A stretch of DNA of 56,366 bases from IMG/VR virus record IMGVR_UViG_3300028920_000081, positions 1 to 56,366 of that record, one strand, 5' to 3'. The notes under the pieces were generated by a model. It saw nothing but the letters and a program-made list of their open reading frames with translations. It did no database searches and had not been told where the DNA came from. The translations under genes and the position numbers were made by a program. Each line of letters opens with the position of its first letter. Position 1 is the first letter of the stretch. The stretch is from a virus (Duplodnaviria > Caudoviricetes). Shown piece by piece: positions 5,246 through 38,303 of the stretch.

Positions 5246-5246
5246 A

Positions 5247-13787: not shown

Positions 13788-13789
13788 AA

Positions 13790-13820: not shown

Positions 13821-13826
13821 AAAAAG

Positions 13827-13866
13827 ATTTATAAAGTCCATTATACATAGGATTATATAATGGATA
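13827..13866 (+). promoter_or_regulatory. 40-bp TATA + palindromic operator + ATG, copy 1 (exact inverted copy at 39758-39797)
   Basis: ATTTATAAAGTCCATTATACATAGGATTATATAATGGATA; arms TCCATTATA/TATAATGGA with 10-nt spacer. Confidence 0.9.
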
Positions 13867-14540: not shown

Positions 14541-15600
14541 ATTTAATTGGAGGCAAAAAGATAATTATGTTTTTCTTCAGAATAAAGATATTGAAATCCA
14601 CTTTGAAGTTCCAAATAATTTTAAATTAAATGATACCCATCCAACTTTATTAAGATTAGTTGAATATTTAGTCTTTGGTCCTTTTGAGAAAGAGGTTTTT
14701 AAAAGAAGTGATATTCTTAAATGGAAGAAAAGAGTATTTAAAAAAACAGGAGATATTGCTCTTTCATGGAGTACTGGAAAGGACTCTACTGCTGCAATGT
14801 TAGTTCTCCCAGAAAATACTTTATTATTTTATCATCAAAGAGATGAATATCTTGGAGGTTCACTAGACCAAGATAACGCATTTAGATTTATAAATCATAT
14901 TAAAGGAAAAAAGAGATTATTTGTTTCTAAATCTAATCAAGAAAAAGTTAGAATGTTGCATGGAAAAGAAAGGGGTTTTTCTACACCCTTTAGTTGTGTT
15001 GCTGGTCTTGTTTTATTAGCTGATCATTTTAAATTAAATTATATCGCTACTGGGACTATGTTAGATTCTACTTTTATTGAAAAAGGATGTAAATATAGAG
15101 ATTTAAAAGAATTTTGGAGTAGATGGGGGCTTATTTTTGGTAGAGCTGGTTTAAAGCTTGTGCTTCCTGTTGGAAATATTTCAGAGGTTTTAACAAGCAA
15201 GATAGTTTCTATGAGTGAATATGATGAATATTCTTTTTCTTGTATAAGAGGGAATAATGGAAAGGCTTGTGGGAAATGTTATAAATGTTTTAGAAAAAAT
15301 CTTTTAGATGGAAAGGAAGTGATTTATTCTTCAAATGCAGATAGAGCTCTTTATCATTCAGATCATTTACATCAAGGAGATGCTTTAATTTGGGCGTATC
15401 AAAGGAGTAATTTAAAAATTCCTAGATTAGAAGAATATAGAAATCTTGATTTGTCTTTTTTGGAAAGATATTATCCTCTTGGGAATCATTTAATTCCAGA
15501 AAAATATAGATCTTTTGTATTGGAAAAATTTAAAGAATATGATATTAAACCAATGAATAAGGAGGATATTAAGAAACTCAAAAAAATAGATATAAAATGA
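14533..15600 (+). CDS. PP-loop (adenine nucleotide alpha-hydrolase, QueC/DUF6395-like) protein
   Basis: ALSWSTGKDSTAA PP-loop; SCIR...CGKCYKCFRK Zn motif. Confidence 0.65.
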   Translation: MVKFNWRQKDNYVFLQNKDIEIHFEVPNNFKLNDTHPTLLRLVEYLVFGPFEKEVFKRSDILKWKKRVFKKTGDIALSWSTGKDSTAAMLVLPENTLLFYHQRDEYLGGSLDQDNAFRFINHIKGKKRLFVSKSNQEKVRMLHGKERGFSTPFSCVAGLVLLADHFKLNYIATGTMLDSTFIEKGCKYRDLKEFWSRWGLIFGRAGLKLVLPVGNISEVLTSKIVSMSEYDEYSFSCIRGNNGKACGKCYKCFRKNLLDGKEVIYSSNADRALYHSDHLHQGDALIWAYQRSNLKIPRLEEYRNLDLSFLERYYPLGNHLIPEKYRSFVLEKFKEYDIKPMNKEDIKKLKKIDIK

Positions 15601-16511
15601 TAAAAGTTTTTTTAATTGCTACTGGTTATTCTGATAATTTTAATCATGTATTTGGTGGAAGTCCAATGGAATATTTGTCTCTCAAAACTGCTTTTGATAG
15701 GGAAAAAGATTATATCTTTGAAGTTATGCCTCAATCAAAATTTGATTTTGAAGTAGTAAAGAGGAAAAGAGAAGAAGGTTATATTATCCATTGTGAATCT
15801 TGGACTTGCCTATGTAAATTATATAAGGAAAATTTTATTCCAGATGTTTTAGGTCCAACAATTCAATCTCCTTTTAAAAATGAACAAAGATTACAAAGTT
15901 TAAAGGATATAAATTTTCCTATTGATAATTACTTTTTATCTACAGTTATTAGAAATAATTCTGCAGAAGAAAGATCTTATCCAGAAATGGCCAAAAAAAT
16001 TAAGTATATTCACTTGGGGGTTGATACTGATAAGCTTAAACCTTCTAATAATGAAAAAAAATTAATTCTTTGGGCAGGAGATTCTTCTCGTTCTTGTAAG
16101 AATTTTGAATTAATGAAAGAAATAATGAAGATTACTAAACTTCCAAAACCTTATGAATTTAAGATATTATCTCAGTATAATGTATTAGATTATTGGAATA
16201 TCCTTAATCAAACAAAGATAGTTATTAATACAAGCAAATGGGAAAGCTTTTGTTTTGCTATGTTTGAAGCAGAATCTAAAGGAGTTCCAGTTATTTATAA
16301 AAAAGGCTTACATGGAAATGTTCATAAAGACAATCATATACAAGTAGAAAATACTCCAGAAGCATATAGGGACAAAATATTAGAATTATTAAATAATGAA
16401 GAATTATATAAAAAAGAAAGCAAATATGCCAGAGATTATACTATTAAAAATTCAAGTTATGAGATGATGGTTAAAACTTTTGGGGATATTTATAAGGGGA
16501 TTAAAAAATGA
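15597..16511 (+). CDS. Glycosyltransferase, GT-B/GT4-like
   Basis: LGVDTDKLKP, TSKWESFCFAMFEAESKGVPVI (Ex7E). Confidence 0.85.
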   Translation: MIKVFLIATGYSDNFNHVFGGSPMEYLSLKTAFDREKDYIFEVMPQSKFDFEVVKRKREEGYIIHCESWTCLCKLYKENFIPDVLGPTIQSPFKNEQRLQSLKDINFPIDNYFLSTVIRNNSAEERSYPEMAKKIKYIHLGVDTDKLKPSNNEKKLILWAGDSSRSCKNFELMKEIMKITKLPKPYEFKILSQYNVLDYWNILNQTKIVINTSKWESFCFAMFEAESKGVPVIYKKGLHGNVHKDNHIQVENTPEAYRDKILELLNNEELYKKESKYARDYTIKNSSYEMMVKTFGDIYKGIKK

Positions 16512-17200
16512 TAGTTTTTTTTAGAGATGATGATGTAGATGAAGTTAATCCTCAATTAACTAATTTGGTTAAGATGTTTGCAGAGGAAAAAGTTCCTATT
16601 AATTTAGAAGTTGTTCCTGGGAGAGTTGGAATTAGTACAACGCCAATAAATAATTTAAAGAATTTTTTTAATAAATATAAAGATTTTATAGAGGTTCATC
16701 AACATGGATTTAATCATTTTGAATATGCTCCAAGAAATGAATTTCCTGATGAGAGGATAAATTTAGTGGTTAGTGAAGAAATTAAGGCAGGAAAGATATT
16801 TTTAGAAACTTATTTCAAGGAATTTTTTTATCCTGCATTTACTCCCCCCTGGCATAGAATAGGAAAATTTCATATCCCAGTAATAGAAAAATTAGGCTTT
16901 AAGATAATTTCTGCAGGATTTAATTTAAATCATAAACTAAAAGATTTATCTGTTTATACTGACCTCTCTATATTTGATAATAAACTTAAAAAAAGTAGAT
17001 TTGCTACAAAAGAAGAATTAATTGAAAAGTTTGAAAAACTTAAGAAAGAAAAATCTTCTGAAATGATAGGATTTTATCTTCACCATAAGTTCTATAAAAC
17101 TCCGGAATCTATAGAACCTATAAGAGAATTTATTAAATATTTAAAAGAAAAGGAGGTAAAAATTAAAACATTTAGTCAAATATGGGAGCTTCACAAATAA
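16508..17200 (+). CDS. Polysaccharide deacetylase (NodB/CE4-like)
   Basis: FFRDDDV, HQHGFNH, FTPPWHR, YLHH. Confidence 0.85.
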   Translation: MIVFFRDDDVDEVNPQLTNLVKMFAEEKVPINLEVVPGRVGISTTPINNLKNFFNKYKDFIEVHQHGFNHFEYAPRNEFPDERINLVVSEEIKAGKIFLETYFKEFFYPAFTPPWHRIGKFHIPVIEKLGFKIISAGFNLNHKLKDLSVYTDLSIFDNKLKKSRFATKEELIEKFEKLKKEKSSEMIGFYLHHKFYKTPESIEPIREFIKYLKEKEVKIKTFSQIWELHK

Positions 17201-17673
17201 GTTACGTTCCAGCATTATGGGATATTGCAAATAGTGGATTTAAACCTAATAAGGTTTTAGAATTAGGTTGTGGTTGTAGTTCTTTCATGCTTAGATGGTT
17301 ATTTGAAAAGTCAAAATTACATATAATAGATGATAATTCCATTTGGTTTAATTGTACTGAAAATATGGGGGGATATTCAGCAGATTTTAGAAAATTAGCT
17401 AGAACCAAGCAGGATTTTTTAGACGGAATATTACAATTTGGAAAAATGGATTTGATCTTTGTAGATTGTGGACGTAGAGGGGATTATTCAGATAAATGGA
17501 GAAGTGATTTTTTGAAATTAATTAGGGAGAAAAAAATATTAAATCCAGAAGGGTTGATAATTTTACATGATGCAACTCGTCCTGAATATCAAGAAGAATG
17601 TAAAAATTGGGAATGTGATAAAAAGAAAGAGGAGGATACTTACATTTTAAAATGGCCTTTGAACCAAAAATAG
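17182..17673 (+). CDS. Class I SAM-dependent methyltransferase
   Basis: VLELGCGCSS, DLIFVD, GLIILHDA. Confidence 0.85.
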   Translation: MGASQISYVPALWDIANSGFKPNKVLELGCGCSSFMLRWLFEKSKLHIIDDNSIWFNCTENMGGYSADFRKLARTKQDFLDGILQFGKMDLIFVDCGRRGDYSDKWRSDFLKLIREKKILNPEGLIILHDATRPEYQEECKNWECDKKKEEDTYILKWPLNQK

Positions 17674-18485
17674 ATTTTGTAATTTCAGTAAGGGATAGAG
17701 ACAATAAAAGAATACAGATATGTGTAAATAGTCTTTTATCTAATATTACAAATAAGATATATGTTGTGGACTATGGTTCTAAAAAACCTATTAAGGGTTT
17801 AAAAAATTGTAAAGTAATAAGAGTTGATACTAAAAATAGATGGAACAAATGCCATGCTTTAAATATAGGAATAAAAAAATGCAAATCTTCCTATATTGGA
17901 ACAGTTGATTGTGATATGGTTATTGGGAATTGTTTTATGAAAAAAGTAAAGGAACATTTAAAGGGAGATGTTTTTCTTTTTACTCGTTCTGTTGCTAGGA
18001 TTGCTCCAGATCTTTTAGATTGGGGATTAGATAGAGAAAAGCTTATTAGACTTTCTTCTCCTTGGTCTGAAACAAAACTTCCGAGTTTGCATGCTGCTGT
18101 TGGAGGAATACAAATATTTCCAAAATGGTGGATTTTTAGAATAAGAGGATATGATGAAAATCTTACTTATTGGGGGGGAATGGATAATGATATATATGAA
18201 AGAGCATTTAGAACAGAATTGATTATGATTGATATTAATGAAATAATCTTTCATCAAGAACATAAGAATGTTAAAGAACAGAATTTAACTTCTAAAAAAG
18301 AGCAGGAAACTGCTTTATCTGAAAGACAAAAAAGAAGAATATATCTTATGTATAAATGGACTAAAAATATTAATGTTGGACCTAAAACATGGGGTGCTCC
18401 AACTAAACCTCAACAAAATCAAATAAATATTAATTTTCAAAATGGCAAAAAGAAAAAAGATACTGTTAGCAATAATAAGCAATAG
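17652..18485 (+). CDS. Glycosyltransferase GT2 with GT7C-like C-terminus
   Basis: YVVDYGS, LNIGIK, TVDCD, GYDENLTYWGGMDND. Confidence 0.9.
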   Translation: MAFEPKIDFVISVRDRDNKRIQICVNSLLSNITNKIYVVDYGSKKPIKGLKNCKVIRVDTKNRWNKCHALNIGIKKCKSSYIGTVDCDMVIGNCFMKKVKEHLKGDVFLFTRSVARIAPDLLDWGLDREKLIRLSSPWSETKLPSLHAAVGGIQIFPKWWIFRIRGYDENLTYWGGMDNDIYERAFRTELIMIDINEIIFHQEHKNVKEQNLTSKKEQETALSERQKRRIYLMYKWTKNINVGPKTWGAPTKPQQNQININFQNGKKKKDTVSNNKQ

Positions 18486-19077
18486 AAAATATTATCCTGC
18501 ATATTTTGTTAGGAGTGTTTTTGCAATAGCAAATCATACAAGACAATTTCATGACTTGGATATACAAACTTTTGAATCAGTTGAAGTTCAGCAAATGAGA
18601 AATAACGCATGCCATTTTGCTATTCATCATAAATATGATTATCTCTTTATGTTAGATGATGATATGAATTATCCTCAAAAATGTATAGTTGAATTAATGA
18701 AGCATAAGAAAGAATTTGTTGTTGGGAGTGCAACTCAAAGACGACCTCCATTCTATCCTACTCAATATAAAAATTTAAATGCAAAAAGATTTAAGGATAA
18801 AGTTAATAGAGTTTTTATAACAAAAGAAGATAAAAAATTAATAGAAGTTGATGGCTCTGGAGTTGTTGGAGCTCTAATAAAGGTTGATTCTCTTAAAAAA
18901 TTAAAGGCACCTTATTTTAGATTAGTTTGGAAGAAAAATGGATTTGATATAATTGGGAGTGATGTTTATTTTTGTAAGGAATGGAGAAAAACAGGGAAAA
19001 AAATTTATTTAGACCCTAAAATAAATTATGATCACGAAATAACTGCTTTTTCTAATAGTTTTGGAATTGTAACATAA
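18442..19077 (+). CDS. Glycosyltransferase, GT-A/GT2-like
   Basis: DYLFMLDDDM, GSDVYFC...DPKINYDH; paralogue of 10096..10734. Confidence 0.85.
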   Translation: MAKRKKILLAIISNRKYYPAYFVRSVFAIANHTRQFHDLDIQTFESVEVQQMRNNACHFAIHHKYDYLFMLDDDMNYPQKCIVELMKHKKEFVVGSATQRRPPFYPTQYKNLNAKRFKDKVNRVFITKEDKKLIEVDGSGVVGALIKVDSLKKLKAPYFRLVWKKNGFDIIGSDVYFCKEWRKTGKKIYLDPKINYDHEITAFSNSFGIVT

Positions 19078-25277: not shown

Positions 25278-26480
25278 ATGGTAGATCACAATGAAAGAGT
25301 TAATGTATTCTGGAATTTTATTAATCAAGGTTCTGCTTCTTTAAAAGAAGTTACCAATCAACATCAAAAATTGAGTAATGGAATGGCTCAAACTCAACAG
25401 ATTACTGCTAAGGCAAATACTGGCATGAAAAAGCTTAATCAGTCTGCAGGTAAAGGTATTGGTATTGGAAAAGGTTTTCAATTTGCTTGGTTAGGAGTTA
25501 TGTTTGCTGGTATGGCTTTATATAGAGTATTTGGAGGATTAATTAAACAACAATTAGAAATGTGGGGTGTTACAGAATTATTAAGTCAAACATTGAGTGT
25601 TGTGTTTATACCTTTAATGTCTTTATTAACTCCAATTTTATACGGTTTATTAGCTTTTTTTATGGATCTTCCAGATGGTGTTAAAATGGCTATTGGTGTT
25701 TTTATTCTTTTGGCTGCTGGATTAGGATTATTTTTAATGGTTGTTGGGCAGATAATGTTGGGAGTTTTAGCATTTATTGCCTTATGGCCTACGTTAAGTG
25801 CTGTTGCAACCCCAATAATAGCTGGTTTGGGGGCTAGTTTAGGATTAATTCTTATTATTATTGCTGTAGTAATAGCTGTTGTTGCTGGTATGTATATTGC
25901 TTGGAAAAATAATTTTTTGGGCATGCAACAGGTAGTTCAGAATATTGTTAATGGTATTAAACAATGGTTTGAAGGTTTAAAACAATTTTTTGGTGGAATA
26001 TTAAAAGTTATAAAAGGTTTATTTACAGGAGATTTTGAAATGGTTAAGGAAGGGATTATTATGATTTTTAAGGGATTATGGAATATGTTAATTGGTGGTT
26101 GGCATGCAACAATGAATGCTATTAAAGCAATAGTAATTGGAGCTATTCAAATTGTTTGGAATATTATCAAAGTTGTTATTGATGGTATAAAATGGGTTTT
26201 TGAAAAAATTCCTGGTTTAAATAAATTAAATCCTTTTGGAGCCATAACTTCTATAGGAAAAGGAATATTGGGAAGTTTTGCAACTGGAGGAGTAGTCCCT
26301 CAAACAGGACCTTATGTTCTTCATAAGGGAGAAACAGTAGTTCCAAATGGAAGTGGTTCTGGAATTAATATGAATGTTTCTTACAATGTTACTGTTTCTG
26401 ATAAAAGAGAATTTGAAAATATGTTAAAAGATAATAACAATAAACTTACTCAGGATGTAAGGAGGTTAGTAAATGGCTGA
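25278..26480 (+). CDS. Tape measure protein (short, 400 aa)
   Basis: Hydrophobic/amphipathic W/F-periodic helices, LPDGVK, FATGGVV...LHKGETVVP. Confidence 0.85.
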   Translation: MVDHNERVNVFWNFINQGSASLKEVTNQHQKLSNGMAQTQQITAKANTGMKKLNQSAGKGIGIGKGFQFAWLGVMFAGMALYRVFGGLIKQQLEMWGVTELLSQTLSVVFIPLMSLLTPILYGLLAFFMDLPDGVKMAIGVFILLAAGLGLFLMVVGQIMLGVLAFIALWPTLSAVATPIIAGLGASLGLILIIIAVVIAVVAGMYIAWKNNFLGMQQVVQNIVNGIKQWFEGLKQFFGGILKVIKGLFTGDFEMVKEGIIMIFKGLWNMLIGGWHATMNAIKAIVIGAIQIVWNIIKVVIDGIKWVFEKIPGLNKLNPFGAITSIGKGILGSFATGGVVPQTGPYVLHKGETVVPNGSGSGINMNVSYNVTVSDKREFENMLKDNNNKLTQDVRRLVNG

Positions 26481-26907
26481 AATAACTATATCAAAAGGGG
26501 ATTATAGTGTTACAGTATATGCTACAGAGATAGATGAAGAATATAGTAATAAAATTTTTAATATCATTCCTCCACAATCTAAAAGTTCTCAAGGTTCTGG
26601 ACCTAAAGATGTTAAATTGGTAGATTTGCTTAGAATAACGCATCAAATTGCTATTAAAAGAGCTTATATAACTGCTAGTGATACAAAAACTGCAAAAGAA
26701 GTTAAAGATGATTTAAAATCTATTTTTAATGGTGGAGATGAAAATGGAGGAGAAGTGACATTAACCTATGATGGGGATAGTTTTACAGGATATATAGAAA
26801 AGTTAGGAATTACAGAAGATGCTAATGATGAACCAGATAATTATACCGGAAAAGATAATGCAAAATATCATATCCAAATCACATTCATAGAAGGGGTATC
26901 AATATAA
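26473..26907 (+). CDS. Distal tail-like protein
   Basis: Position after tape measure, size, beta-rich. Confidence 0.55.
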   Translation: MAEITISKGDYSVTVYATEIDEEYSNKIFNIIPPQSKSSQGSGPKDVKLVDLLRITHQIAIKRAYITASDTKTAKEVKDDLKSIFNGGDENGGEVTLTYDGDSFTGYIEKLGITEDANDEPDNYTGKDNAKYHIQITFIEGVSI

Positions 26908-29900
26908 TGGTAACAAAAAAATTAGTTGGTGGATTGCTTTTATTAGTTATTCTTACCGCTTCTGTTTATTTAGTATTTGATAATAAATATAAAATTCTTG
27001 TAGAGAACACCAGAACTCAATATTTTGTAAATGAAAATAGTTCTTGGGTTTTAGCTGCAACTGAATATGTTAATTTATTTGATGGAACAACTAAAATGAG
27101 AGCAAGTTCCAGAGATATAAATTATTCTTTTGATAATTATTATACTACCATAGTTAGAACTTCAGAATGGAAAGATAATATTACTACAATTCAAACTTAT
27201 GTCTTTGAAAATAATGCAACAGATATAGAAGAAGTTCCAATTAAAAATACTCTTGAATGTATTAATTGTGTTGGTAAGATAGTTCATTATGAGATTAGAG
27301 ATATACTCTATGAAGGAGAAACAGAAGTAATTTCTAGTCCATTTGAATTTGGTCATAATATGAAAATTAGTTGGCAAGATGGAGCTTATTATTCTAAGGT
27401 CTTCCAACAAAAAGTAGCAAGTGATAAGATTATAATTAGATATAGACCAGAAGATAATTATGAAACTTATGAAGTTAGATTATTTGATCCAAGTTGGTGG
27501 AATAGTTCTTTCCTTTACAAAAAAGAAATTACTATTAATGAAACTTCCGGAGAGGATTTAATAAATTTTTCGGTTTTAATGAATGTTTCTTATGAAGAAA
27601 ATATGCTTAATGATTTTGCTGATTTAAGGTTTGTTAATTCTACTGATGATGTTGAATTGGGCTATTGGATTGAAAATAAATCAGATGGGGCTTATGCCTG
27701 GATTTGGGTTAATGTTAATTTAACTGCTAGTTCAAATAATACAATTTATATGTATTATGGGAATAATACAGAAGTTGAATCTAATTCTAATGAAAATAAA
27801 ACTTTTTGGTTTTATTATTATGACGATTCAACTCATCAATCTTCATCTCATCACGTTGTTGAGCCAGTTACTGAGGTTAATGTTACTCTTTGGGACGAGT
27901 GGGAATATAAAATTGCTCATTTGACTTCTTATAAAAGTGGGACTACTTGGAGCCAATATGCTGGAGCAGGTTTTGATTATGATGGGACTTCTTATAGAGA
28001 TGGTGATGATGTTTTATTGTTTGGTTCTCAGTCTTGTGATGCAGGAGGGATATATTGGGAAGATGACCCATCTCATTCTGGTTGTAGATTTGGTAATCCT
28101 GATGGAGAGATAGCTTCGGAAGGGACATATACACACCCCTCTACTTATAACGCATCAATAGGTGATGTTCACGAATTGACTATTTTTCAATGGATAGATA
28201 CTTCAGGTAAAACTGCTCAGATAAGATTAACGCAATTTATTCTTAAAGGATATGCAAGTTCAGATCCAATAGTTTATTTTGGAGAGGAAGAAGAATTATC
28301 TGGTGATGCTCCAAATATAACATTAAATGCTCCAGAAGATACATACAACTCATCAAGTCAAACAATAGTCTTTAATTGTACAGGAACAGATGATCAATTA
28401 GTTCAGAATATTTCTTTAATTTTAAATTCAACATATAATGAGACTCTCGTTAGGTCTTATTTATTCACTCCTTCAAATTATTTGGAAGATATTTATTTTT
28501 ATTACTCTTTGAATGATTCTACTAATAGTATTATAGATTATTCTGGTAATGGAATTAATGGTACAAATAGTGGAGGGCAATTAAATTCCCAAGGATATGT
28601 TGATGATGGAATTTATTTTTCTGGAGGATATTCTCAATATATTAATGGAACTTCTACTCCTTTAATATCTCCCAAAAATGGTTCCGTTGTTTTTTGGGTA
28701 AATATAACAAATAGGAGTGATGAAAATTATTTATTCCTTTCTTCTGGTAATCTCGGAAATTTATATATGAGAGCTGGTTTAACTTCTTCAGGAAATTTAA
28801 AACTAAACTTTTATGATTATGATTCAACACCATCACATTTGGAAAAATTTGAAGTTGATTTTATTCCAAATTTAAATGAATGGTATCAAATTGGTTATTC
28901 TTGGGGCGATGCAGGGAGAAAAATTTATGTTAATGGAACCCTTATTGATTCTGACTTAAGTTACCTTGGTAATGGTGGAAGTTCTGATCATGACCCAGGA
29001 TTATATATTGGAAGTTTGTATATGATTGCTCCCCAACAAAAATCTATAAATGGAACAATAGATGATGTGATATTATGGAATAGAAGTTTATCTGATGAAG
29101 AATTTTCATTAATATATAAGGAATATAATAATATAAAGAATGAAACTACTCTTACATTAATAACCACAAAAACATTAGATGATGGAGCATATAATTGGAC
29201 GTGTGAAGCCTGTGATAATGATTCTCAATGCACTAATGCTACTCCAAGACAAGTAAATATTGACACAACTTATCCTCTTATTGAATTTATAGCATATACT
29301 GAAGATAATAATTCTTATGTTTCTCAAGATTGGATTTTAGCAAATGTAAGTATGACTGAAATTAATCCTAAGAATGTTACTTATAGACTTTGGAAGGATA
29401 TAACTTATTGCTATCAAGAAAGTGTTAATGTTTCAAATCAAACAGGAATTGATGGAAATTGTGGATTGAATTATTCTGGTAATTATTCATTTGAAGATTA
29501 TTATTTTTATATTAATTATACTAAACCAGAAGGAGTATTTAATGCTAAATGGTTAGTTAAACATGGTACTTTAGGAATATATAATATAACAATTTTACCA
29601 GAATGTTTTAATGATTTAATAGAATTAAGAATCATTTCAAATGGTACAGATGATGGAGCAAATAGTGTATTTTGGTCAAGACCTCAATGTTATAACACTA
29701 CACATTGGATTGATATAGGTAGTTTATCAAATGGAACTGTTACAAGTTTTAGTTTAAATTATGATAATAATTGGAGTAAAATGTATGATGGGGATTGGAA
29801 TACTTATGCGACTTTTATAACAGATTTAGGGGCTACTCAGATTTGGGATAATCTTGTTACAGGAGATGCTTTTAGAAGTACAGTTTATGAGGAAGGAATG

Positions 29901-32900
29901 TATTGGGTTTATTCTAATACTACTACATATGAACTTTCAGATGTAACGGAAAATAATACAATTAATTGGACAGATCTTTCTAATGGAGAATATTTTTATA
30001 ATGTTACAATCTGTGATAGTTTTGATTTATGTAATTCAACAGAGACAAGATACATAACTTTAGATACAACTGAGCCAATGATTTATTTAGAAACAGAAAA
30101 CAATACAATAGAATATATGAATAGAACCCCCACTTTTTCTTTTAATGTAAGTGATAACCTAAATGATACTTTAGAATGTTTACTTTATTTAAATAATGGT
30201 TCAGATATTGCTGCAGGAATTAATAGTTCTGTTCTAAATGCCACAAGCACATCAATTACTTCAAACACAACTTTAGCAAATGGAAATTATACTTGGTGGG
30301 TTAATTGTTCAGATGGATTACAAGAAAATAAATCAGTAGATTATAGAATAAATATTTCAGTAGTTCCTCCTAGTGTAACTTTAAACTCTCCTGAAAATGC
30401 TTATAATTCATCAAGTTCAAGTATAACTTTTAATTGCTCTGCTACATCACTTAGTGGAAATTTAACTAATATGTCTTTAATTTTAAATGGAGTTTATAAT
30501 GAAAGTATTGATTTAGAAGAAGGTATTTGTTATCAAGAAAGTGTTAATGTTTCAGATCAAACAGGAATTGATGGAAATTGTGGATTGAATTATTCTGGTA
30601 ATTGGTCATCAACTGCTACTGGAACTATTCCTGTAAGTGCAGTTTTTGATGGTTTATGGGTTAGTAGTTATAATCGTGCTCCATTTACAGATTATTATCA
30701 TTATATTAATTATTCTATTCCTTCTTCAAGTTTTGGGGCTATTTGGAAAAGTTCAATGCGAGTTTATCCATATAACCAACCAATATCTAATGAAACTATA
30801 GATGTAAATTGTCTTAGTGGGGATTTTCTTCAAATAAGAATTTCTCAATTAGGAAATTCTACATTATATGGACAGTGTTATAATGGAACTGATTGGATTG
30901 GAGCTTATAATTCAATGTCTTCAAGTCAATTAGGAAATACTAATATTGATGAAGAAGCAGTTTATTGGAATGTTTCCTTTGGGAGTAATTATACATTAAC
31001 TGCCACAAAGACTTTAAGTGATGGATTAAATCAAAATTGGACTTGCGAAGCATGTAGTGCTATTGGTTGCACAAAGGGAACATCAAGGAATATTTCTGTT
31101 GATACTCTTTACCCTGGAATTAATTTTGATGACCCTACCCCCGACAATAATAGTGCTTATGGTGCAAGTTATTTAGATATTGCTGTTAGAATTAATGAAT
31201 CTAATACGAACAATGTAACTTATAGGATTTATAATGATACTGGAGTAATTTGGAATGAAACTACTTATTTACAAGATTCTAAATTAGATAATGTAACAAT
31301 TAATTGGACTCCTCTTGCAGAAGATACTTACCTATATAATGTAACTGCTTGTGATGATTTTGATCAATGTAATTCTACTGGAACTAGATATGTTGTAATT
31401 GATAATACTTATCCTCTTATTGATTATGAAGATAATTCAGATCCTATAAATGAATCTGGAGATTTTGATGTTAAGGATTGGGTTTTTGTTAATGTAAGTG
31501 TAACAGAAACTAATGAGAAAAATATAACTTTTACTCTTTGGGATGTAAGTGGAATAGAAAATCAAACAACCTATACTACTGCTGTTAGAGATATTAACTG
31601 GACTGATTTGCCAGAATCTATGTGGTTTTGGAATGTAACTGTATGTGATGACGCTTCTCTTTGCAATACAACTTCTACCAGACACTATGGTGTTGAATTA
31701 GTTAATTTATCTTTTGAAGGAACTTATGATAATGTTACTGCAGAATTAGGAGGTAATGTTTCTATTTCTGCTATAAATACAAATAATACAGTTTGTATTG
31801 ATATAGACCACCCAGATTATGGTTTAAATTATTCTTGTGCGTCTCAAAATAATACAATAAATTTAGATATTGATTATTTTAGAAAAACAACCTTTGCTAA
31901 TGGAAATGAATATCAAAATAGAACTTTTTCAGGAGATAATATTTCTATAAATATTACTGGACATGAATACGATGAAATAGATAATTTAACTGTTAATATA
32001 TCCAGTGATGATAGTCTTAAAGATATTATATTTTACAATACAAATTCTTCTTCAATAGATAGAATATTTTATGGATATTTGATTGGAAGTAATATTTATC
32101 AAAATGTAACTTATGAAGATGAAAGCTCTAAGAATTTTACTTATGTTGGAGAGGAAAGCAAAGAAACTTATCTTGAGATGGATGGAAGCTCTACTTTAAT
32201 TAATTTATCTTTTAATGTTACTGGATTTGAATATGGATTTAGTACAGTAGATTGGTTAAATAATTCCTTTGAAAATATAGATAGAGATACTCCAAAAACT
32301 ACAGCACATTTATCTGGAGGATTTATTACTGCTCAAGGAACAGACCCAGTAAGTATGACTTATGATGATTTTGACGATGATTCAATAAGTGATATTTTGT
32401 GGAGTTTTGGTTTAGCTAATGGAGCAGGGAATACAGACCCTGGAGACCCAGACGAAGGATATGATTATACTATTGCTAACTTTGAAGGAGGAGATGAGAT
32501 TTCTCTTTATGTTACTGGATTTGATGAGGATTGGTCAGGAGATGAAAGAGGAACAGATACTCTATCTAATACAATGTGGAGTAATATAAGCCATATGAAT
32601 ATTTGGACTGCTGAAGGAATACTTTTGCAATTTGATTATTCTTTTACAGCTCATGAAGATGAAGAATATGGAGATTGTATCTTCTATAACCAAGTACAAT
32701 TAGGAGATAAAACAGCTTGGCAAAGTCAAAGAGATAGATGTAAAGATAGAGGGGAATTAACTTATGATTGTGATGATCATTCCTTAACTTTAGAGCCAAT
32801 TATTTTAAATATAACTAAGAATTTAAACAATAGTTGGAATGTTTCTATCTCTGGTGTTGAACTAACTTATGGAGATTATGTGGATAGAGATGATAGTGAT

Positions 32901-34325
32901 TGTGGAACAAGATACATAGTTTATAATTATTCTAATGGTTCTAAACATACTTATTTTACAGGGTATGATGATTCTGGTGGTGATGCTTGTGAGGAAACTT
33001 TAGATTCTTACGAAACTCTTTCAAATACTACCATGATTTCTGATTTAGATTGGAACATATCAGACCAATTATATTTCAAACAATTTATGCAGGGAAGCTG
33101 GGATAATGAAGATGGAACTGGATGTGAATATTATTCTAATCCTTGGTGGAATATATCTTATGTTAATCAAACACTACTTAATAGAAGTAATGGAACTGTT
33201 TATTCTTATAGTATGTATAGTTCAGAGCAAATTCCAAAAGCAACTTTAAATGTAAGCAACTATACTAATTCTACTCTAACTGGAGATAATATAACTCTCT
33301 ATATGTCTGCAGATAATGTTAATTATGAATCAGTTATAGAAGCAACAGAGCATACATTTACTAATTCTGGAGGAGAATTAACTTATAAAATTGAGTTTAA
33401 CATTACAAATACAGGATATGTTAATAGCACCCCTATGATTTATAATATAAATATTTCTACTCCTCAAGATAATGCGAGTAATGTAGATTTTGATTTTGGT
33501 GATGATGGAAATGTTGATTATACAATCTCTGGAGATTTAACAAATACACAAACAATAAATATCTCTAGTGCAACATTATCTTCTGTTTTTTCTGGAATAG
33601 CAGATTATGGAGATTATGGTTATTATGTTCCTTTAATCATTTCTTCTGATACTCCAGGAATAATACAAATAAGTGCAATTAATTTAACATATAATCCTAA
33701 TCCTGTCTCATTAAATGTTACAAAAATATATGATTTTATGAATACCTATGGAGCAAATGAAACTAATTTCACTATTAATCTTTCATCAAATTCTACTGGA
33801 ACTATTAACTTAACTGATTTAAGATATGATTATGCAGGAGGAAATGATACAATAGTTATTAGTGCCTCTAATGATGACGATTCTCAAATTGTTACTAGAA
33901 ATATAACCTATTATTATTCTAAATGGGATTATAATTTTGTTCCTTCTGGAATAAACTTTTTAGAATTTTCTCCTAGAAAACCAACTTCAGATAATGTTAC
34001 TCCTTATGGACAAAGTTCAAGCACACCTATATTAAATATAACAAATTATGGTTATGGGGGAAGGGTGGCAGATTTATCTGTTTATGTAAATGATTCTCTT
34101 GAATGTGTTAATTTAACAATAAGTACAGATAATAATAAATCTAATGGAGTAATGGTTAATGAATCTTGGAATAATTTAAGCCAGGATTTAGATTATTTAG
34201 ATTCTGTTGATATTTGGATGTGGGCTGACTTTGAATGTGATTATTCTACTTGGAATTATTTTAATCCATATATTTATTTTAGACAATGTGCTAATAATTC
34301 CCTTTGTTCCGAGGAGGTTTTATAA
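26907..34325 (+). CDS. Giant 2472-aa membrane-anchored/secreted adhesin: DUF2341, LamG, Cys-containing Ig-like repeats, two CYQE modules
   Basis: N-terminal TM (LVGGLLLLVILTASVYLVF); SWWNSSF...DFADLRF...YWIE...IYMYYGN (DUF2341); LamG; repeated PxITLxxP...YxWxxxxCD; very many N-x-S/T sequons. Confidence 0.85.
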   Translation: MVTKKLVGGLLLLVILTASVYLVFDNKYKILVENTRTQYFVNENSSWVLAATEYVNLFDGTTKMRASSRDINYSFDNYYTTIVRTSEWKDNITTIQTYVFENNATDIEEVPIKNTLECINCVGKIVHYEIRDILYEGETEVISSPFEFGHNMKISWQDGAYYSKVFQQKVASDKIIIRYRPEDNYETYEVRLFDPSWWNSSFLYKKEITINETSGEDLINFSVLMNVSYEENMLNDFADLRFVNSTDDVELGYWIENKSDGAYAWIWVNVNLTASSNNTIYMYYGNNTEVESNSNENKTFWFYYYDDSTHQSSSHHVVEPVTEVNVTLWDEWEYKIAHLTSYKSGTTWSQYAGAGFDYDGTSYRDGDDVLLFGSQSCDAGGIYWEDDPSHSGCRFGNPDGEIASEGTYTHPSTYNASIGDVHELTIFQWIDTSGKTAQIRLTQFILKGYASSDPIVYFGEEEELSGDAPNITLNAPEDTYNSSSQTIVFNCTGTDDQLVQNISLILNSTYNETLVRSYLFTPSNYLEDIYFYYSLNDSTNSIIDYSGNGINGTNSGGQLNSQGYVDDGIYFSGGYSQYINGTSTPLISPKNGSVVFWVNITNRSDENYLFLSSGNLGNLYMRAGLTSSGNLKLNFYDYDSTPSHLEKFEVDFIPNLNEWYQIGYSWGDAGRKIYVNGTLIDSDLSYLGNGGSSDHDPGLYIGSLYMIAPQQKSINGTIDDVILWNRSLSDEEFSLIYKEYNNIKNETTLTLITTKTLDDGAYNWTCEACDNDSQCTNATPRQVNIDTTYPLIEFIAYTEDNNSYVSQDWILANVSMTEINPKNVTYRLWKDITYCYQESVNVSNQTGIDGNCGLNYSGNYSFEDYYFYINYTKPEGVFNAKWLVKHGTLGIYNITILPECFNDLIELRIISNGTDDGANSVFWSRPQCYNTTHWIDIGSLSNGTVTSFSLNYDNNWSKMYDGDWNTYATFITDLGATQIWDNLVTGDAFRSTVYEEGMYWVYSNTTTYELSDVTENNTINWTDLSNGEYFYNVTICDSFDLCNSTETRYITLDTTEPMIYLETENNTIEYMNRTPTFSFNVSDNLNDTLECLLYLNNGSDIAAGINSSVLNATSTSITSNTTLANGNYTWWVNCSDGLQENKSVDYRINISVVPPSVTLNSPENAYNSSSSSITFNCSATSLSGNLTNMSLILNGVYNESIDLEEGICYQESVNVSDQTGIDGNCGLNYSGNWSSTATGTIPVSAVFDGLWVSSYNRAPFTDYYHYINYSIPSSSFGAIWKSSMRVYPYNQPISNETIDVNCLSGDFLQIRISQLGNSTLYGQCYNGTDWIGAYNSMSSSQLGNTNIDEEAVYWNVSFGSNYTLTATKTLSDGLNQNWTCEACSAIGCTKGTSRNISVDTLYPGINFDDPTPDNNSAYGASYLDIAVRINESNTNNVTYRIYNDTGVIWNETTYLQDSKLDNVTINWTPLAEDTYLYNVTACDDFDQCNSTGTRYVVIDNTYPLIDYEDNSDPINESGDFDVKDWVFVNVSVTETNEKNITFTLWDVSGIENQTTYTTAVRDINWTDLPESMWFWNVTVCDDASLCNTTSTRHYGVELVNLSFEGTYDNVTAELGGNVSISAINTNNTVCIDIDHPDYGLNYSCASQNNTINLDIDYFRKTTFANGNEYQNRTFSGDNISINITGHEYDEIDNLTVNISSDDSLKDIIFYNTNSSSIDRIFYGYLIGSNIYQNVTYEDESSKNFTYVGEESKETYLEMDGSSTLINLSFNVTGFEYGFSTVDWLNNSFENIDRDTPKTTAHLSGGFITAQGTDPVSMTYDDFDDDSISDILWSFGLANGAGNTDPGDPDEGYDYTIANFEGGDEISLYVTGFDEDWSGDERGTDTLSNTMWSNISHMNIWTAEGILLQFDYSFTAHEDEEYGDCIFYNQVQLGDKTAWQSQRDRCKDRGELTYDCDDHSLTLEPIILNITKNLNNSWNVSISGVELTYGDYVDRDDSDCGTRYIVYNYSNGSKHTYFTGYDDSGGDACEETLDSYETLSNTTMISDLDWNISDQLYFKQFMQGSWDNEDGTGCEYYSNPWWNISYVNQTLLNRSNGTVYSYSMYSSEQIPKATLNVSNYTNSTLTGDNITLYMSADNVNYESVIEATEHTFTNSGGELTYKIEFNITNTGYVNSTPMIYNINISTPQDNASNVDFDFGDDGNVDYTISGDLTNTQTINISSATLSSVFSGIADYGDYGYYVPLIISSDTPGIIQISAINLTYNPNPVSLNVTKIYDFMNTYGANETNFTINLSSNSTGTINLTDLRYDYAGGNDTIVISASNDDDSQIVTRNITYYYSKWDYNFVPSGINFLEFSPRKPTSDNVTPYGQSSSTPILNITNYGYGGRVADLSVYVNDSLECVNLTISTDNNKSNGVMVNESWNNLSQDLDYLDSVDIWMWADFECDYSTWNYFNPYIYFRQCANNSLCSEEVL
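29408..29484 (+). repeat. 77-bp direct repeat, copy 1 (CYQESVNVSNQTGIDGNCGLNYSGN)
   Basis: 75/77 identical to 30527-30603. Confidence 0.9.
30527..30603 (+). repeat. 77-bp direct repeat, copy 2
   Basis: Differs from copy 1 by one C/T and one A/G. Confidence 0.9.
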
Positions 34326-35857
34326 TGCCAGTTAGAAATATTGGAGCAATAGGCGTTAAGAATAGAGATAGAGATAAACCAATACCAATTCATGTTCCAA
34401 TTCCTCCACTATATGACGCTGTTTATAAAATTGAAGTAATTTCTGATGGAACTACCTATGATATAACTCTTGATTTAATTGAGGGAAAATATACAGATGG
34501 GATTACAGATACTATTGGAGATTTTGAGTTTAAAATACAAAATGGTGGGGAGGATTATACTGATATTTTTAGTGTTTATGATGAAGTTAGAGTGTATCTT
34601 GATTATGGAAGTTCAGCGGATAATCAAAGATTTACAGGATACATAGAAAGAGTTAGCAGATCAAATAATAATATTGTTCTTAGTGGTAAAGGTGGAGCGA
34701 TTAAAGTTATGGGAAAAAAGGTTATCTATTCTGCAACAAGCAAAGCAAGAAGTACTATCCTTGCTGAAATAATCTCTGAAAATTTTTCAGATATATTAAC
34801 TACAAATAATTTAGAATCTGATACCGGAACTGCTACTGTTAGTTATTCCGAAAAACCTTTTTGGGAAATAGTTCAAGAATTATGCAGACAAGGAGGATAT
34901 GATGCTTATATTGATAAGGATTTAGATTTTAATTATTTTGAATCTGGTTCTAGGAAAACAACTACAGAATCTATAGTTCATGATAGAAATTTAATTGAAA
35001 CAGGAGATTTTGCTCCAGATGCAGAAGGAATTTATAATAAAGTTAGAGTTTATGGAAAAGAATATAATGGAATTCCTATAATTGCAACTGCAAAAGATTC
35101 AACATCTATTTCTACTTATGGCCCTAAAGAATTAAAAATTAATGATTCAAATATCACTACTCAATCACAAGCACAAGCAAGAGCTGATTTTGAATTATCC
35201 TCCTCTCAAAATCCTCCAACAGTTGGGACTTTAAAATCCTTATGTCTTCCTACTCTTGCTCCAGGAGAGCAACTTCCAATAAGTGATCCAATGAATGGCT
35301 TAGAACCAGGGTATTATTCAATTCAAAAATTCACTCATACTTTTTCAAATGATGACCCTCTTATGACTGAAGTAACAATCCAACAAGAAAGATCTTCTAT
35401 TCCTACTATTATGAAAAAAAGAATAAAATTTGAATCAGAGATAACAGCTATTACTAATCTTAATGATATGGATTATACAATTCTTTATAATTTTAATTCA
35501 GATATTGGAAGCAATTCAAATACTACTATCACTAAAACAAATCCAGACCCTAATACTGGAGAATTTCAAGATGGTTATTTAGCTATTTCTGAAGGAAGTA
35601 GTGTTGGAACATGGACAAGTGCTACAACTACCTTAGATTCAAATGTTGATTCTGTTGAAATGAGAATTAGTGGGGATAACATAGGCGTTGATAGTATGAG
35701 TGGATGGGTGAGTACTGATGGAGGAACTACTTGGACAGAAGCTACAAGAACTCAAGGTATTTCTGTTCCTAGTGGAAAGAGATTAGCAATCAAATTAGAA
35801 TTATTTGATACAGATACTAAAATAAATACTGTTGCATTATTATATAAATTAGAATAG
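34325..35857 (+). CDS. Baseplate hub / tail-tip protein
   Basis: FTGYIERV, YNKVRVYG, SISTYG...INDSNITTQSQAQARA; start reassigned to ATG 34325. Confidence 0.75.
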   Translation: MPVRNIGAIGVKNRDRDKPIPIHVPIPPLYDAVYKIEVISDGTTYDITLDLIEGKYTDGITDTIGDFEFKIQNGGEDYTDIFSVYDEVRVYLDYGSSADNQRFTGYIERVSRSNNNIVLSGKGGAIKVMGKKVIYSATSKARSTILAEIISENFSDILTTNNLESDTGTATVSYSEKPFWEIVQELCRQGGYDAYIDKDLDFNYFESGSRKTTTESIVHDRNLIETGDFAPDAEGIYNKVRVYGKEYNGIPIIATAKDSTSISTYGPKELKINDSNITTQSQAQARADFELSSSQNPPTVGTLKSLCLPTLAPGEQLPISDPMNGLEPGYYSIQKFTHTFSNDDPLMTEVTIQQERSSIPTIMKKRIKFESEITAITNLNDMDYTILYNFNSDIGSNSNTTITKTNPDPNTGEFQDGYLAISEGSSVGTWTSATTTLDSNVDSVEMRISGDNIGVDSMSGWVSTDGGTTWTEATRTQGISVPSGKRLAIKLELFDTDTKINTVALLYKLE

Positions 35858-37737: not shown

Positions 37738-37998
37738 TTACATATATTTCTCAGTTTTAGTTCTTATCTGTTTCTCATATACCTTTATGTTTGAATCCAG
37801 AATCTTTTGATTATTCTGTAATTTTCTTAAAAGGTTTCTTGCTCTTTTCATTGGAAATTCTCTCTTTATTTCTTCTTCAATTTTTCTAATTTCATTTTCT
37901 GTATCAAAAAGTTGCAATTCTAATTCTTCCATAGCTTGTCTTCTCTTTTTAATATCTTCGTCTGTTAGCTTCCTTGATTTTAATTCTGGTTTAGCCAT
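37738..37998 (-). CDS. Coiled-coil hypothetical protein
   Basis: Heptad-like E/K/L pattern. Confidence 0.55.
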   Translation of the reverse strand: MAKPELKSRKLTDEDIKKRRQAMEELELQLFDTENEIRKIEEEIKREFPMKRARNLLRKLQNNQKILDSNIKVYEKQIRTKTEKYM

Positions 37999-38293: not shown

Positions 38294-38303
38294 TTTTCCT
38301 CCA

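Follow-up and report, generated by a model that had tools for sequence, protein, structure and literature searches.

A giant candidate tail fibre with an export and N-glycosylation signature in the tail-tip locus of a putative archaeal siphovirus

The tail-tip locus of an uncultured head-tail virus carries, directly upstream of the baseplate hub gene, a gene for a protein of 2472 amino acids with the features of an exported glycoprotein. On balance, we read this product (26907..34325) as the tail fibre or adhesin, that is, the receptor-binding protein, of an archaeal siphovirus, which would be exported, N-glycosylated and joined to the tail late. We infer that it is located in the virion. The host is probably a small-genome archaeon of the DPANN type. 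The window (the whole stretch of DNA that was analysed) is a linear IMG/VR virus record of 56366 bases, IMGVR_UViG_3300028920_000081, rated 65% complete by CheckV. The ORF occupies 7419 of these bases (13.2%), which agrees with the size given in a first-pass annotation (2472 aa, 13% of the genome). That annotation proposed either a tail receptor-binding protein or a virus-supplied adhesin. Our results support this choice of two, and the tail branch is now the better one given the fibre position in Haloferax tailed virus 1 (HFTV1), together with conserved synteny. The export and glycosylation side of the proposal is also supported, by a conserved signal and by a sequon excess tied to N-terminal helices.

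The tail-tip features are as follows:
25278..26480, plus strand: tail tape measure protein, 400 aa (phrog_58, E 4.5e-16, and ten other PHROG tape-measure families)
26473..26907, plus strand: conserved 144-aa tail-tip gene, possibly a distal-tail or baseplate-tail connector to judge by its position
26907..34325, plus strand: candidate tail fibre and putatively exported giant adhesin, ATG start, 2472 aa, both junctions TAATG
34304..35857, plus strand: baseplate hub, called as an ORF of 517 aa from the TTG at 34304; likely start, the ATG at 34325
34379..34414, plus strand: hub residues 26-37 (PIPIHVPIPPLY), an N-terminal peptide that the C-end domain is predicted to touch (co-fold interface)

The 144-aa ORF ends at 26907, where its TAA overlaps the giant ATG as TAATG, and the giant TAA (34323-34325) overlaps the in-frame hub ATG at 34325 in the same manner, with GAGGAGG preceding it. 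The translational coupling to both neighbours that had been proposed is borne out by these two overlaps. There is no earlier in-frame start for the giant ORF. A downstream start that would remove the N-terminal helix was not found either: the next methionine is residue 64, within a conserved domain, and homologues align starting at residue 1. For the 144-aa gene, the earlier label 'distal-tail' holds as to position and lacks support from sequence: neither Pfam nor PHROGs nor a profile search of the PDB yielded a match, and hhalign against HFTV1 gp41 was not significant (E 0.068). The tape measure protein has internal hydrophobic segments at residues 106-193. The giant protein was itself considered as a tape measure and rejected, as it is all-beta and has no PHROG match and the 400-aa gene fills this role. 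The hub matches Pfam YQBQ-like (E 1.9e-9) and the baseplate hub families phrog_400 and phrog_4930. Its PDB profile matches are the HFTV1 baseplate hub (9h4p_BD, E 1.9e-5), a VgrG-like chain and Mu gp44; hhalign with HFTV1 gp44 gives a probability of 87.8% (E 3.3e-6, 292 columns).

The order tape measure, 144-aa gene, giant gene, hub is kept in relatives, as the annotation had suggested checking. The gene for the C-end domain (the last 273 residues of the giant protein) lies directly 5' of a hub homologue in all nine IMG/VR loci, and tape measure and 144-aa homologues lie upstream of it in seven of the eight loci that have upstream DNA (L034 and L035, both counted, are near-duplicates). A 144-aa homologue separates the tape measure and giant genes in L003, L006, L007, L016, L017, L030, L032-L036 and L038. 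This placement has persisted while the hub diverged to 23-53% BLAST identity. The relatives thus carry the same kind of gene here and not an ordinary fibre. Consistent with the annotation, no second fibre candidate was seen in the tail module; the record being 65% complete, a further fibre gene could lie past its ends. A tblastn search of 50,697 deposited phage records with the hub and with the C-end domain gave zero matches.

The giant protein consists of a conserved N-terminal end, a variable central string of lectin and Ig-like modules, which giant surface proteins of small-genome archaea share, and a conserved C-terminal region:
26907..26963, plus strand: Sec-type signal, residues 1-19 (n-region MVTKK, h-region 6-16, c-region T-A-S)
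26964..27491, plus strand: conserved N-domain, residues 20-195, modelled with a galactose-mutarotase-like beta-supersandwich fold
27612..27842, plus strand: DUF2341, residues 236-312 (Pfam PF10102, E 8.2e-15)
28626..29102, plus strand: LamG/concanavalin-like domain, residues 574-732 (Pfam PF13385, E 7e-16)
29124..31706, plus strand: duplicated Ig-like modules, residues 740-1600, the host-like part (internal repeats; weak Big_13 match)
31704..34322, plus strand: conserved C-terminal region, residues 1600-2472 (~870 aa), all-beta in the model
32343..33182, plus strand: ConA/GH16-like jelly roll with insertions, residues 1813-2092 (VIA structure match)
33504..34322, plus strand: C-end domain, residues 2200-2472 (273 aa), predicted hub-docking module (co-fold, synteny)

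The AF2 model of the N-domain (pLDDT 84.1, pTM 0.77) matches 9o3q_A (VIA Z 13.8, rmsd 2.8 A, 174 aligned) and the YidC P1 domain (VIA Z 11.5). N-domain homologues are 35-64% identical. They occur in a tail context at 7 of 17 loci and as large proteins in other genomic contexts at the remaining 10. The C-terminal region is also modelled confidently (pLDDT 89.2, pTM 0.65), and no Pfam family was found in the pieces scanned. Its jelly roll matches 5wut_B (VIA Z 12.0, rmsd 3.5 A, 162 aligned) and residues 567-885 of the HFTV1 hub chain 9h4p_BD (VIA Z 11.7, 128 aligned). LamG-like proteins from haloarchaeal and Streptomyces tailed viruses are among the look-alikes found in BFVD. With residues 1399-2472 as query, 1009 representative clusters were found at E<=1e-3 and 309 at E<=1e-30. 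In 108 of 127 proteins, at most 15 aa separate the C-end domain from the end of the chain; no PDB chain similar to this domain came up in a profile search. Overall, the models (of monomers) depict a string of beta-sandwich domains and no trimeric fibre.

Cellular relatives were found for the middle only. Of 301 small archaeal genomes, 56 encode giant ORFs that match residues 1399-1600, and the named matches of the middle modules are proteins of Pacearchaeota, Woesearchaeota and Aenigmarchaeota; no cellular homologue of the whole protein was found in these genomes. The N-domain, as a single query, was found in 0/301. The C-end profile gave 17 weak partial matches (16 within positions 14-206, one at 198-294) and its last 200 positions were unmatched. 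The contigs that carry the conserved ends are no longer than 87 kb, and in IMG/VR virus records these ends stand beside tail genes. The annotation had raised the possibility of a recently transferred host gene; with its two ends not found in the 301 candidate host genomes, the protein is not simply a borrowed host adhesin.

Judged by sequence, the tripartite layout of the N-terminus is that of a cleavable Sec signal peptide. Kyte-Doolittle 19-mer windows exceed 1.6 only at starts 1-8 (peak 2.57). Column counts over 24 aligned homologues give an n-region M-A-K-K, an h-region of 11 residues and [TSA]-[SA]-[SG] at 17-19, and residues 20-24 form a beta-strand in the model of the first domain. The predicted TM/signal helix is real and conserved: it is kept in these 24 homologues, and 93 of 100 C-end proteins of full length carry a hydrophobic helix at the N-terminus. 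The median density of sequons in this set is 5.0 per 100 aa. The description 'membrane-anchored' holds for the helix and is insecure as to anchoring, since the small residues at 17-19 fit a cleavable signal peptide.

The claim that the protein is dense in sequons is fully supported. It contains 152 N-x-S/T motifs compared with 51.4 in shuffles (z 16.7), and the reversed motif [ST]-x-N occurs 52 times. The excess is present in all regions but the N-domain. Residues 740-1600 have 66 sequons (21.8 expected), and the C-end domain has 18 (6.4 expected), with nine positions kept in at least five of seven sequences and an excess in all six homologues (z 5.1-6.7). The 40 cysteines are mostly in close pairs, including the two clusters that had been quoted (CEACDNDSQC at 766-775 and CDSFDLC at 1036-1042). 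Residues 740-1600 hold 23 of them, as pairs or triads, and a 'CYQESVNVS..' module recurs there. The hub has no signal and few sequons, as noted earlier, although the exact number is 4 (5.6 expected) rather than about 3. The capsid, tube and tape measure proteins of the window, like the hub, have no sequon excess. Among 252 ORFs (150 aa or longer) from 27 related loci, an excess (z>=3) was found in 26 of the 34 with an N-terminal helix and in 5 of the 218 without (Fisher p 1.5e-23); two of these five are homologues of the giant protein that fall barely below the hydrophobicity cut-off. In the phylum that is the candidate host (a candidate only), 92 of 101 genomes encode STT3/AglB. From these features we infer that the giant protein is exported through Sec and N-glycosylated.

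Other genes of the window may belong in the same picture:
4124..8614, plus strand: three genes (373, 217 and 914 aa), each with an N-terminal signal and a sequon excess
10096-10734 and 23088-24011: paralogous glycosyltransferase-like genes, the latter within the tail module
13860..19077, plus strand: glycan-enzyme cluster between the head and connector genes (DUF6395, GT1, methyltransferase, GT2, Anp1-like glycosyltransferase)

The three genes at 4124..8614, with 17, 6 and 24 sequons (7.5, 2.2 and 13.4 expected), appear to share the exported-glycoprotein signature of the giant gene; the 914-aa product has four LamG domains. The virus encodes at least six glycosyltransferase-like genes and several methyltransferases, with one of each inside the tail module.

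The C-end domain is predicted to clamp the conserved N-terminal peptide of the hub. The co-fold of the two, which the annotation had suggested in outline, scored 0.68 and the best control 0.00 (alignments of 4, 6 and 7 rows). Runs had at least 38% of contacts in common and a partner pLDDT of at least 59. Of 157 solved complexes 116 reached the mark, as did 2 of 215 mismatched pairs; these counts calibrate this case only roughly because it was a three-chain job with custom shallow alignments. The hub has a solved distant relative complexed with its fibre, so some memory effect is possible. The PIPIHVPIPPLY motif is kept in the hub alignment and in the hub homologues of L030-L038.

We propose that Sec would export the giant protein, that the host oligosaccharyltransferase AglB would N-glycosylate many of the 152 sequons, and that the cysteine pairs would become oxidised. 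The glycan might be altered by the viral glycosyltransferases and methyltransferases. If exported, the protein would meet the cytoplasmic hub only once the envelope is breached, so that virions would become complete at lysis or later. By analogy with HFTV1, one fibre would be attached by its C-terminus to each hub subunit, three per tail, with the N-domain distal. Lectin-like modules on the virion would then attach to the next host cell through its glycans or surface-layer proteins. A broader proposal, which we put forward only tentatively, is that in a large group of archaeal head-tail viruses the fibre is Sec-exported, N-glycosylated with a virus-reprogrammed glycan, disulfide-bonded and held at the cell surface, to be captured by hub N-peptides at lysis, and that the 4124-8614 proteins join likewise.

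Several points weigh against an exported fibre. The predicted partners, the hub (without signal) and the giant protein, would be made on opposite sides of the membrane, and the usual polarity of fibres is the reverse of C-terminal attachment. The C-end domain resembles neither HFTV1 gp42 nor any PDB chain in sequence, the models give no trimeric fibre, N-domain proteins stand in other contexts at 10 of 17 loci, and in HRTV-DL1 the loss of aglB left the life cycle unchanged (PMC10384203). Export marks on an adhesin in the fibre position are hard to reconcile with tails that are built inside the cell, and we know of no late-joining mechanism in head-tail viruses.

This problem of topology disappears if the gene encodes a virus-supplied, non-virion protein, shown on or shed from the infected cell. 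Such a protein might help a DPANN cell attach to its partner, or its C-end domain might capture the hub N-termini of virions that arrive or have just been released, in superinfection exclusion or as a decoy; the predicted hub contact suits decoy and fibre equally. The export signature, the strongest signal in the data, is in keeping with this, as are the middle modules common to cellular surface giants, the three further signal-bearing, sequon-rich genes outside the tail module and the 10 of 17 N-domain loci away from tail genes. ConA/LamG proteins and glycosyltransferases of CPR/DPANN viruses have, in the part of the account drawn on here, been read as adhesion help for the symbiont (PMC11310336). 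We nevertheless consider a non-virion role the less likely one: the gene lies within the tail-tip core, not at the edge of the module, with stop/start overlaps on both sides, its placement has survived the divergence of the hub, its position is that of the HFTV1 fibre gene and the tail module offers no other fibre candidate.

It is improbable that the protein is an ordinary fibre assembled in the cytoplasm, with an N-terminal hydrophobic segment that is not an export signal but perhaps a distal membrane-inserting element or assembly tether. Head-tail virus tails are built in the cytoplasm, and the sequons could be modified there by the viral glycosyltransferases (at least six, with several methyltransferases) or be a relic of host-derived modules; mycobacteriophage virions, glycosylated by phage enzymes, are a precedent. 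For the haloarchaeal tailed virus HRTV-DL1, glycostaining of structural proteins and a life cycle unaffected by aglB deletion were reported (PMC10384203). However, the excess of sequons is restricted to proteins bearing an N-terminal helix and spares the capsid, tube, tape measure and hub proteins, and the n-h-c arrangement, in which the residues at -3 and -1 are small, matches a Sec signal. Neither an HMW1C-type (GT41) cytoplasmic N-glycosyltransferase nor an STT3 domain turned up when 57 proteins of the window were scanned with Pfam. The excess in the C-end domain, being positionally conserved, is not a relic of host modules. Finally, an artefact of assembly or of gene calling, or gene decay, is hardly credible: the source is a metagenome assembly and the homologue in L017 is broken into two ORFs (1133 and 1538 aa), but 7.4 kb stays open in DNA of 29-30% G+C, dozens of full-length homologues (1030-3000 aa) have like ends, and the N-domain and C-terminal region give confident models.

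Head-tail viruses are taken to assemble wholly in the cytoplasm. If the favoured reading is true, a secreted, N-glycosylated fibre would add an extracellular assembly step, and the sugar coat of the virus itself, besides that of the host, would take part in host recognition. The family of the giant protein is large and unannotated, and serves as a marker of the tail-tip locus in viruses whose hosts are probably DPANN archaea; we know of no isolate of such viruses. The finding also questions the filing of LamG/ConA genes of DPANN viruses as auxiliary genes for adhesion.

Among known systems, the giant surface proteins of DPANN archaea (DUF2341, LamG, Big_13 and CARDB architectures) share the middle modules at 25-53% identity and likewise have a hydrophobic segment at the N-terminus and sequons in three-fold excess; the N-domain and the last 200 C-end profile positions of the viral protein were not found in the 301 genomes. 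The 'evolved' Dit, Tal and receptor-binding proteins of Gram-positive siphoviruses, which are made and assembled in the cytoplasm, also use lectin, Ig-like and jelly-roll modules for glycan binding, and Pfam, PHROG and structure searches found no Dit or Tal fold or family in the giant protein. The auxiliary genes of CPR/DPANN viruses belong to the same domain class and kind of host and are accompanied by glycosyltransferases, but the portions of that account used here give no tail-module position, signal, sequons or hub-adjacent C-terminal domain (PMC11310336). A precedent for late extracellular completion is the Acidianus two-tailed virus, described as the one virus established to develop its virions outside the host cell (PMC12662068). 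It is spindle-shaped and unrelated, however, and its tails are formed by proteins that the virion already contains rather than by capture of an exported fibre.

The closest parallel in gene order is HFTV1, in which the fibres, gp42, attach to the N-terminus of the hub gp44 (PDB 9h4p; PMC12494034). The proteins differ: gp42 is a homotrimer with a beta-helix (PMC12494034), not a chain of beta-sandwich domains, and has 443 aa, no N-terminal helix (0.32), 6 sequons (4.4 expected) and 1 cysteine. The giant protein gave no PDB profile match to it and an hhalign E of 0.73. The HFTV1 module runs gp40 tape measure, gp41, gp42 fibre, gp43 and gp44 hub, followed by a strand switch. In both viruses, the fibre-position gene follows the tape measure/connector genes and precedes the hub gene, after which the module ends. 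The hubs are homologous, and the site of fibre attachment in HFTV1, the hub N-terminus, is also where the C-end domain is predicted to dock.

The window spans 56,366 bases (about 29% G+C) and is a linear virus record of IMG/VR with a completeness of 65% (CheckV). Its structural genes lie together on one strand and include the 2472-aa ORF referred to here as the giant gene:

466 to 35857, + strand: head-tail structural block
In this block, + strand: large terminase, portal and major capsid protein
In this block, + strand: head-closure and tail-completion proteins
In this block, + strand: tail chaperone (weak match)
25278 to 26480, + strand: tape measure, 400 aa (phrog_58, E 4.5e-16)
26473 to 26907, + strand: 144-aa gene
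26907 to 34325, + strand: giant gene, 2472 aa
34304 to 35857, + strand: baseplate hub (Pfam YQBQ-like; phrog_400 and phrog_4930)

The hub is followed by a 107-aa ORF and then by a strand switch. A homologue of the Alba chromatin protein (37991-38347, - strand; E 3.5e-11), also present in the related locus L032, points to an archaeal host, as do the named homologues of the middle part of the giant protein, which come from Pacearchaeota, Woesearchaeota and Aenigmarchaeota. No tRNA genes were found in the window and Pfam scans of its proteins revealed no diversity-generating retroelement or reverse transcriptase. This apparent archaeal virus also encodes a GGDEF diguanylate-cyclase domain protein (48701-49570, - strand; Pfam E 1e-35). 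A Ku-like protein (45201-45971, - strand; E 3.4e-14), a weak ATP-dependent DNA ligase fragment (8660-9244, + strand) and an RNA-ligase-family protein (52153-52752, + strand) might together serve the end joining or repair of a linear genome. Immediately 3' of the major capsid gene, an H-type lectin domain protein (13159-13515, + strand), kept in the related locus L017, may be a lectin head decoration.

The giant gene is open over its 2472 codons and is coupled to both neighbours. At its 5' end the ATG shares a TAATG with the stop of the 144-aa ORF; at its 3' end another TAATG joins its stop to an in-frame ATG of the next gene, with GAGGAGG upstream of that ATG. The protein has a single strongly hydrophobic stretch (about residues 6-24; Kyte-Doolittle 19-mer peak 2.57). 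These results bear out the first-pass annotation, which had described a translationally coupled gene beginning with such a helix. The close cysteine pairs it had reported are also real (40 cysteines, many spaced 3-6 residues, including both of the strings it quoted), and the contrast it drew between a sequon-dense giant protein and a sequon-poor hub holds: there are 152 N-x-S/T sequons compared with 51.4 in shuffled sequences (z 16.7; reversed motif, 52), whereas the hub has 4 compared with 5.6 expected. A true start further downstream, which would delete the helix, was rejected because homologues are conserved from residue 1. The giant gene was also considered, and rejected, as the tape measure, which is encoded upstream. 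In L017 the giant-gene homologue, flanked by the 144-aa gene and the hub, is divided into two overlapping ORFs (10001-13402, 1133 aa, and 13368-17984, 1538 aa); a frameshift, a programmed shift or a genuine split may lie behind this.

Sixty homologues mapped on the giant protein define three zones. Zone 1 (residues 1 to about 200) is conserved from its first residue with 35-64% identity, and zone 3 (about 1400-2472) with 30-45%. The middle zone is variable, matches only repeats of very large proteins and holds internal duplications (Ig-like modules with Cys pairs or triads). Pfam identifies a DUF2341 (236-312) and a LamG domain (574-732) with nothing more above threshold. The protein has no match in PHROGs or NCBIfam, and its C-terminal 870 aa have none in Pfam, PHROGs or NCBIfam. 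PDB profile searches with the 144-aa protein and with the giant protein's C-terminal region gave nothing significant. The N-domain (residues 20-195) is modelled (pLDDT 84.1) as a galactose-mutarotase-like beta-supersandwich, similar to 9o3q_A (Z 13.8, rmsd 2.8 A, 174 aligned) and to the periplasmic P1 domain of YidC (Z 11.5). The model of residues 1600-2472 is all-beta (pLDDT 89.2). Within it, residues 1813-2092 form a ConA/GH16-like jelly roll (Z 12.0), also like the carbohydrate-binding part of the hub chain of Haloferax tailed virus 1 (HFTV1; Z 11.7). This jelly roll (model 214-493) dominates fold searches of the 873-residue model, which barely cover the last 270 residues. For the C-end domain (residues 2200-2472, the last 273 aa), ESM Atlas returned only archaeal clusters at 0.89, a lead at most.

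With the C-terminal region (1399-2472) as query, 1009 representative clusters were recovered at E<=1e-3 and 309 at E<=1e-30. The C-end domain lies no more than 15 residues from the protein end in 108 of 127 proteins. In 19 of the 127 (P0005, P0006, P0016, P0020, P0021 and 14 others) it contains an extra 200-500 aa, located just before the final Cys-rich segment of about 60 residues, and this site looks like a hot spot for added modules. Among 100 full-length members, an N-terminal hydrophobic helix is present in 93 and the N-domain in 41; the median sequon density is 5.0 per 100 aa.

The tail context is conserved. In IMG/VR loci obtained with the C-end profile, a hub homologue lies directly 3' of the gene in nine out of nine cases and, where upstream DNA is available, tape measure and 144-aa homologues precede it in seven out of eight (L034 and L035 in this set are near-duplicates). 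Scanning IMG/VR with a single N-domain protein gave no match; alignment A1 of this domain gave 17 loci, seven with a tail context. In the other ten the N-domain heads different large proteins, three of them just 3' of a glycosyltransferase-like gene. In L010 (8634-9995), L013 (8516-9802) and L014 (8635-9990) the N-domain giant protein is immediately 3' of a 430-450-aa gene homologous to the GT-A-like paralogues of the window (18442-19077 and 10096-10734), which ties this enzyme family to these exported proteins.

A genome-contig profile scan with alignment A3 identified no relative, and a search with family protein P0029 gave one weak match (L019), which served solely to point to a phylum. From this phylum 301 small (0.5-2.1 Mb) archaeal genomes were analysed, a sample in which 'not found' does not mean 'absent'. 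The N-domain (single-protein query) was found in none of the 301. With the C-end profile, 17 genomes showed weak partial matches, of which 16 fall within profile positions 14-206 and one at 198-294; no match covers the last 200 positions. The Ig-like repeat 1399-1600, on the other hand, matches giant ORFs in 56 of the 301 genomes (one unpublished). Both ends of the protein therefore look virus-specific, and the middle looks like material exchanged with the surface proteins of hosts. A tblastn search of 50,697 deposited phage records found no match to the hub or the C-end domain.

In 24 aligned homologues the N-terminus reads M-A-K-K, 11 hydrophobic residues, [TSA]-[SA]-[SG] at 17-19 and then I-Y-F-L-L-P, which is the first strand of the N-domain model. 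Judged by sequence, such an arrangement is that of a cleavable Sec signal, with a signal anchor as the alternative. Other family members have a longer basic stretch (M-x-K-R-I-Y...K-W) ahead of the helix. An archaeal type IV pilin (class III) signal, whose cleavage motif is [KR]-[GAS], was set aside, since positions 4-6 lack this motif.

The sequon excess extends over every zone except the N-domain (27 vs 9.2, 66 vs 21.8 and 37 vs 12.3; C-end domain, 18 vs 6.4). It recurs in six of six C-end homologues, and nine C-end sequon positions are kept in at least five of seven sequences. We compared 252 ORFs of at least 150 aa from the window and 26 related loci: a sequon z of 3 or more is found in 26 of 34 ORFs with an N-terminal helix compared with 5 of 218 without (Fisher p 1.5e-23), and two of these five are giant homologues barely below the hydropathy cut-off. 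Cysteine content is 1.56% in the helix-bearing ORFs and 0.68% in the rest. Cellular giant proteins with shared middle modules have the same sequon excess. In the sampled phylum, 92 of 101 genomes carry STT3/AglB, and Pfam scans of the window proteins found neither STT3 nor a GT41-type cytoplasmic N-glycosyltransferase. The simplest reading of these patterns is selection for N-glycosylation after export. In exactly four window proteins an N-terminal helix goes together with a marked sequon excess (z about 3 or higher). These are the giant protein and the products of three consecutive genes just 3' of the portal gene:

4124 to 5245, + strand: signal-like helix, 17 sequons vs 7.5
5247 to 5900, + strand: signal-like helix, 6 sequons vs 2.2
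5870 to 8614, + strand: signal-like helix, 24 sequons vs 13.4

The 914-aa protein of this group contains four LamG domains and partly matches the NCBIfam TafC fimbrial protein. The three may be exported virion decorations or surface proteins.

To our knowledge, HFTV1 is the only siphovirus of archaea for which a complete atomic model exists. Its genes run in the order gp40 tape measure, gp41, gp42, gp43 and gp44 hub, followed by a strand switch. The hub-family profile matches the HFTV1 baseplate hub (9h4p, E 1.9e-5), a VgrG-like chain and Mu gp44, and direct comparison of the hub with gp44 (hhalign) gives a probability of 87.8% (E 3.3e-6, 292 columns); the 144-aa family shows no significant relation to gp41. 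The HFTV1 tail fibre is assigned to gp42 (PMC12494034). With the same module order and a homologous hub, the giant gene is thus at the fibre position.

The hub and the 144-aa protein were co-folded with the C-end domain, which was the scored partner, each with its own alignment. The score was 0.68, and the best of three controls 0.00; runs share at least 38% of contacts, with a partner pLDDT of at least 59. Among solved complexes 116 of 157 attain the mark used, and among mismatched pairs 2 of 215; these counts are only rough for such a job. The contacts predicted with confidence run between hub residues 26-37 (PIPIHVPIPPLY), a segment conserved across the hub family, and residues 150-160 and 245-258 of the C-end domain; none of the listed interface residues belongs to the 144-aa protein. 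One of 18 sequons overlaps the 35 interface residues compared with about 2.3 expected, which is not informative. On the hub side, a distant relative has been solved together with a fibre. For the C-end domain, no sequence relation to gp42 or any solved chain could be detected, so the partner side of the prediction is unlikely to reflect memorized structures.

We propose that the giant protein is an exported tail fibre. It would be secreted by Sec, N-glycosylated by host AglB and disulfide-bonded, and would consequently meet the tail only once the envelope opens. The C-end domain is predicted to dock on the N-terminal peptide of the hub. The N-domain would lie distally, and the lectin-like modules would bind glycan or the surface layer. 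More speculatively, virus glycan enzymes could alter the lipid-linked glycan. Such enzymes are encoded within the structural block:

13860 to 19077 (+ strand), 10096 to 10734, 23088 to 24486, 20870 to 21457 and 55780 to 56364: glycan enzymes

The set includes DUF6395, GT1, GT2, an Anp1-like glycosyltransferase, three paralogous GT-A-like genes (one inside the tail module), several methyltransferases including an FkbM type, and a weak sulfotransferase-like match. Between the tail tube and tail chaperone genes lies a pair made up of a glycosyltransferase and a methyltransferase.

The main difficulty is topology: the hub, the predicted partner of an exported fibre, has no export signal. This problem disappears if the giant protein is a non-virion surface protein, an adhesion aid or a decoy capturing hub N-termini, a reading that agrees with the published view of LamG/ConA genes of CPR/DPANN viruses (PMC11310336). 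This reading is hard to square with a gene position that is conserved and doubly coupled at the heart of the tail-tip module, and with the absence of a further fibre gene. A fibre made in the cytoplasm and glycosylated by the virus's own enzymes has a partial precedent in the glycostained structural proteins of HRTV-DL1, whose life cycle is independent of aglB (PMC10384203), but is unlikely because the sequon excess is restricted to signal-bearing proteins. That the giant ORF is an artefact is very unlikely.

The proposed exported fibre can be compared with known systems. We know of no head-tail virus that adds fibres outside the cell. Our search of open-access full text turned up no account of a head-tail virus fibre that bears a signal and is rich in sequons. 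Extracellular virion development is established only for Acidianus two-tailed virus (PMC12662068), and that virus is unrelated to the one described here. HFTV1 gp42, unlike the giant protein, lacks an N-terminal helix (0.32) and a sequon excess (6 vs 4.4), contains one cysteine and is an ordinary cytoplasmic fibre. The giant gene thus appears to combine a known locus for a tail fibre with a new route of biogenesis.
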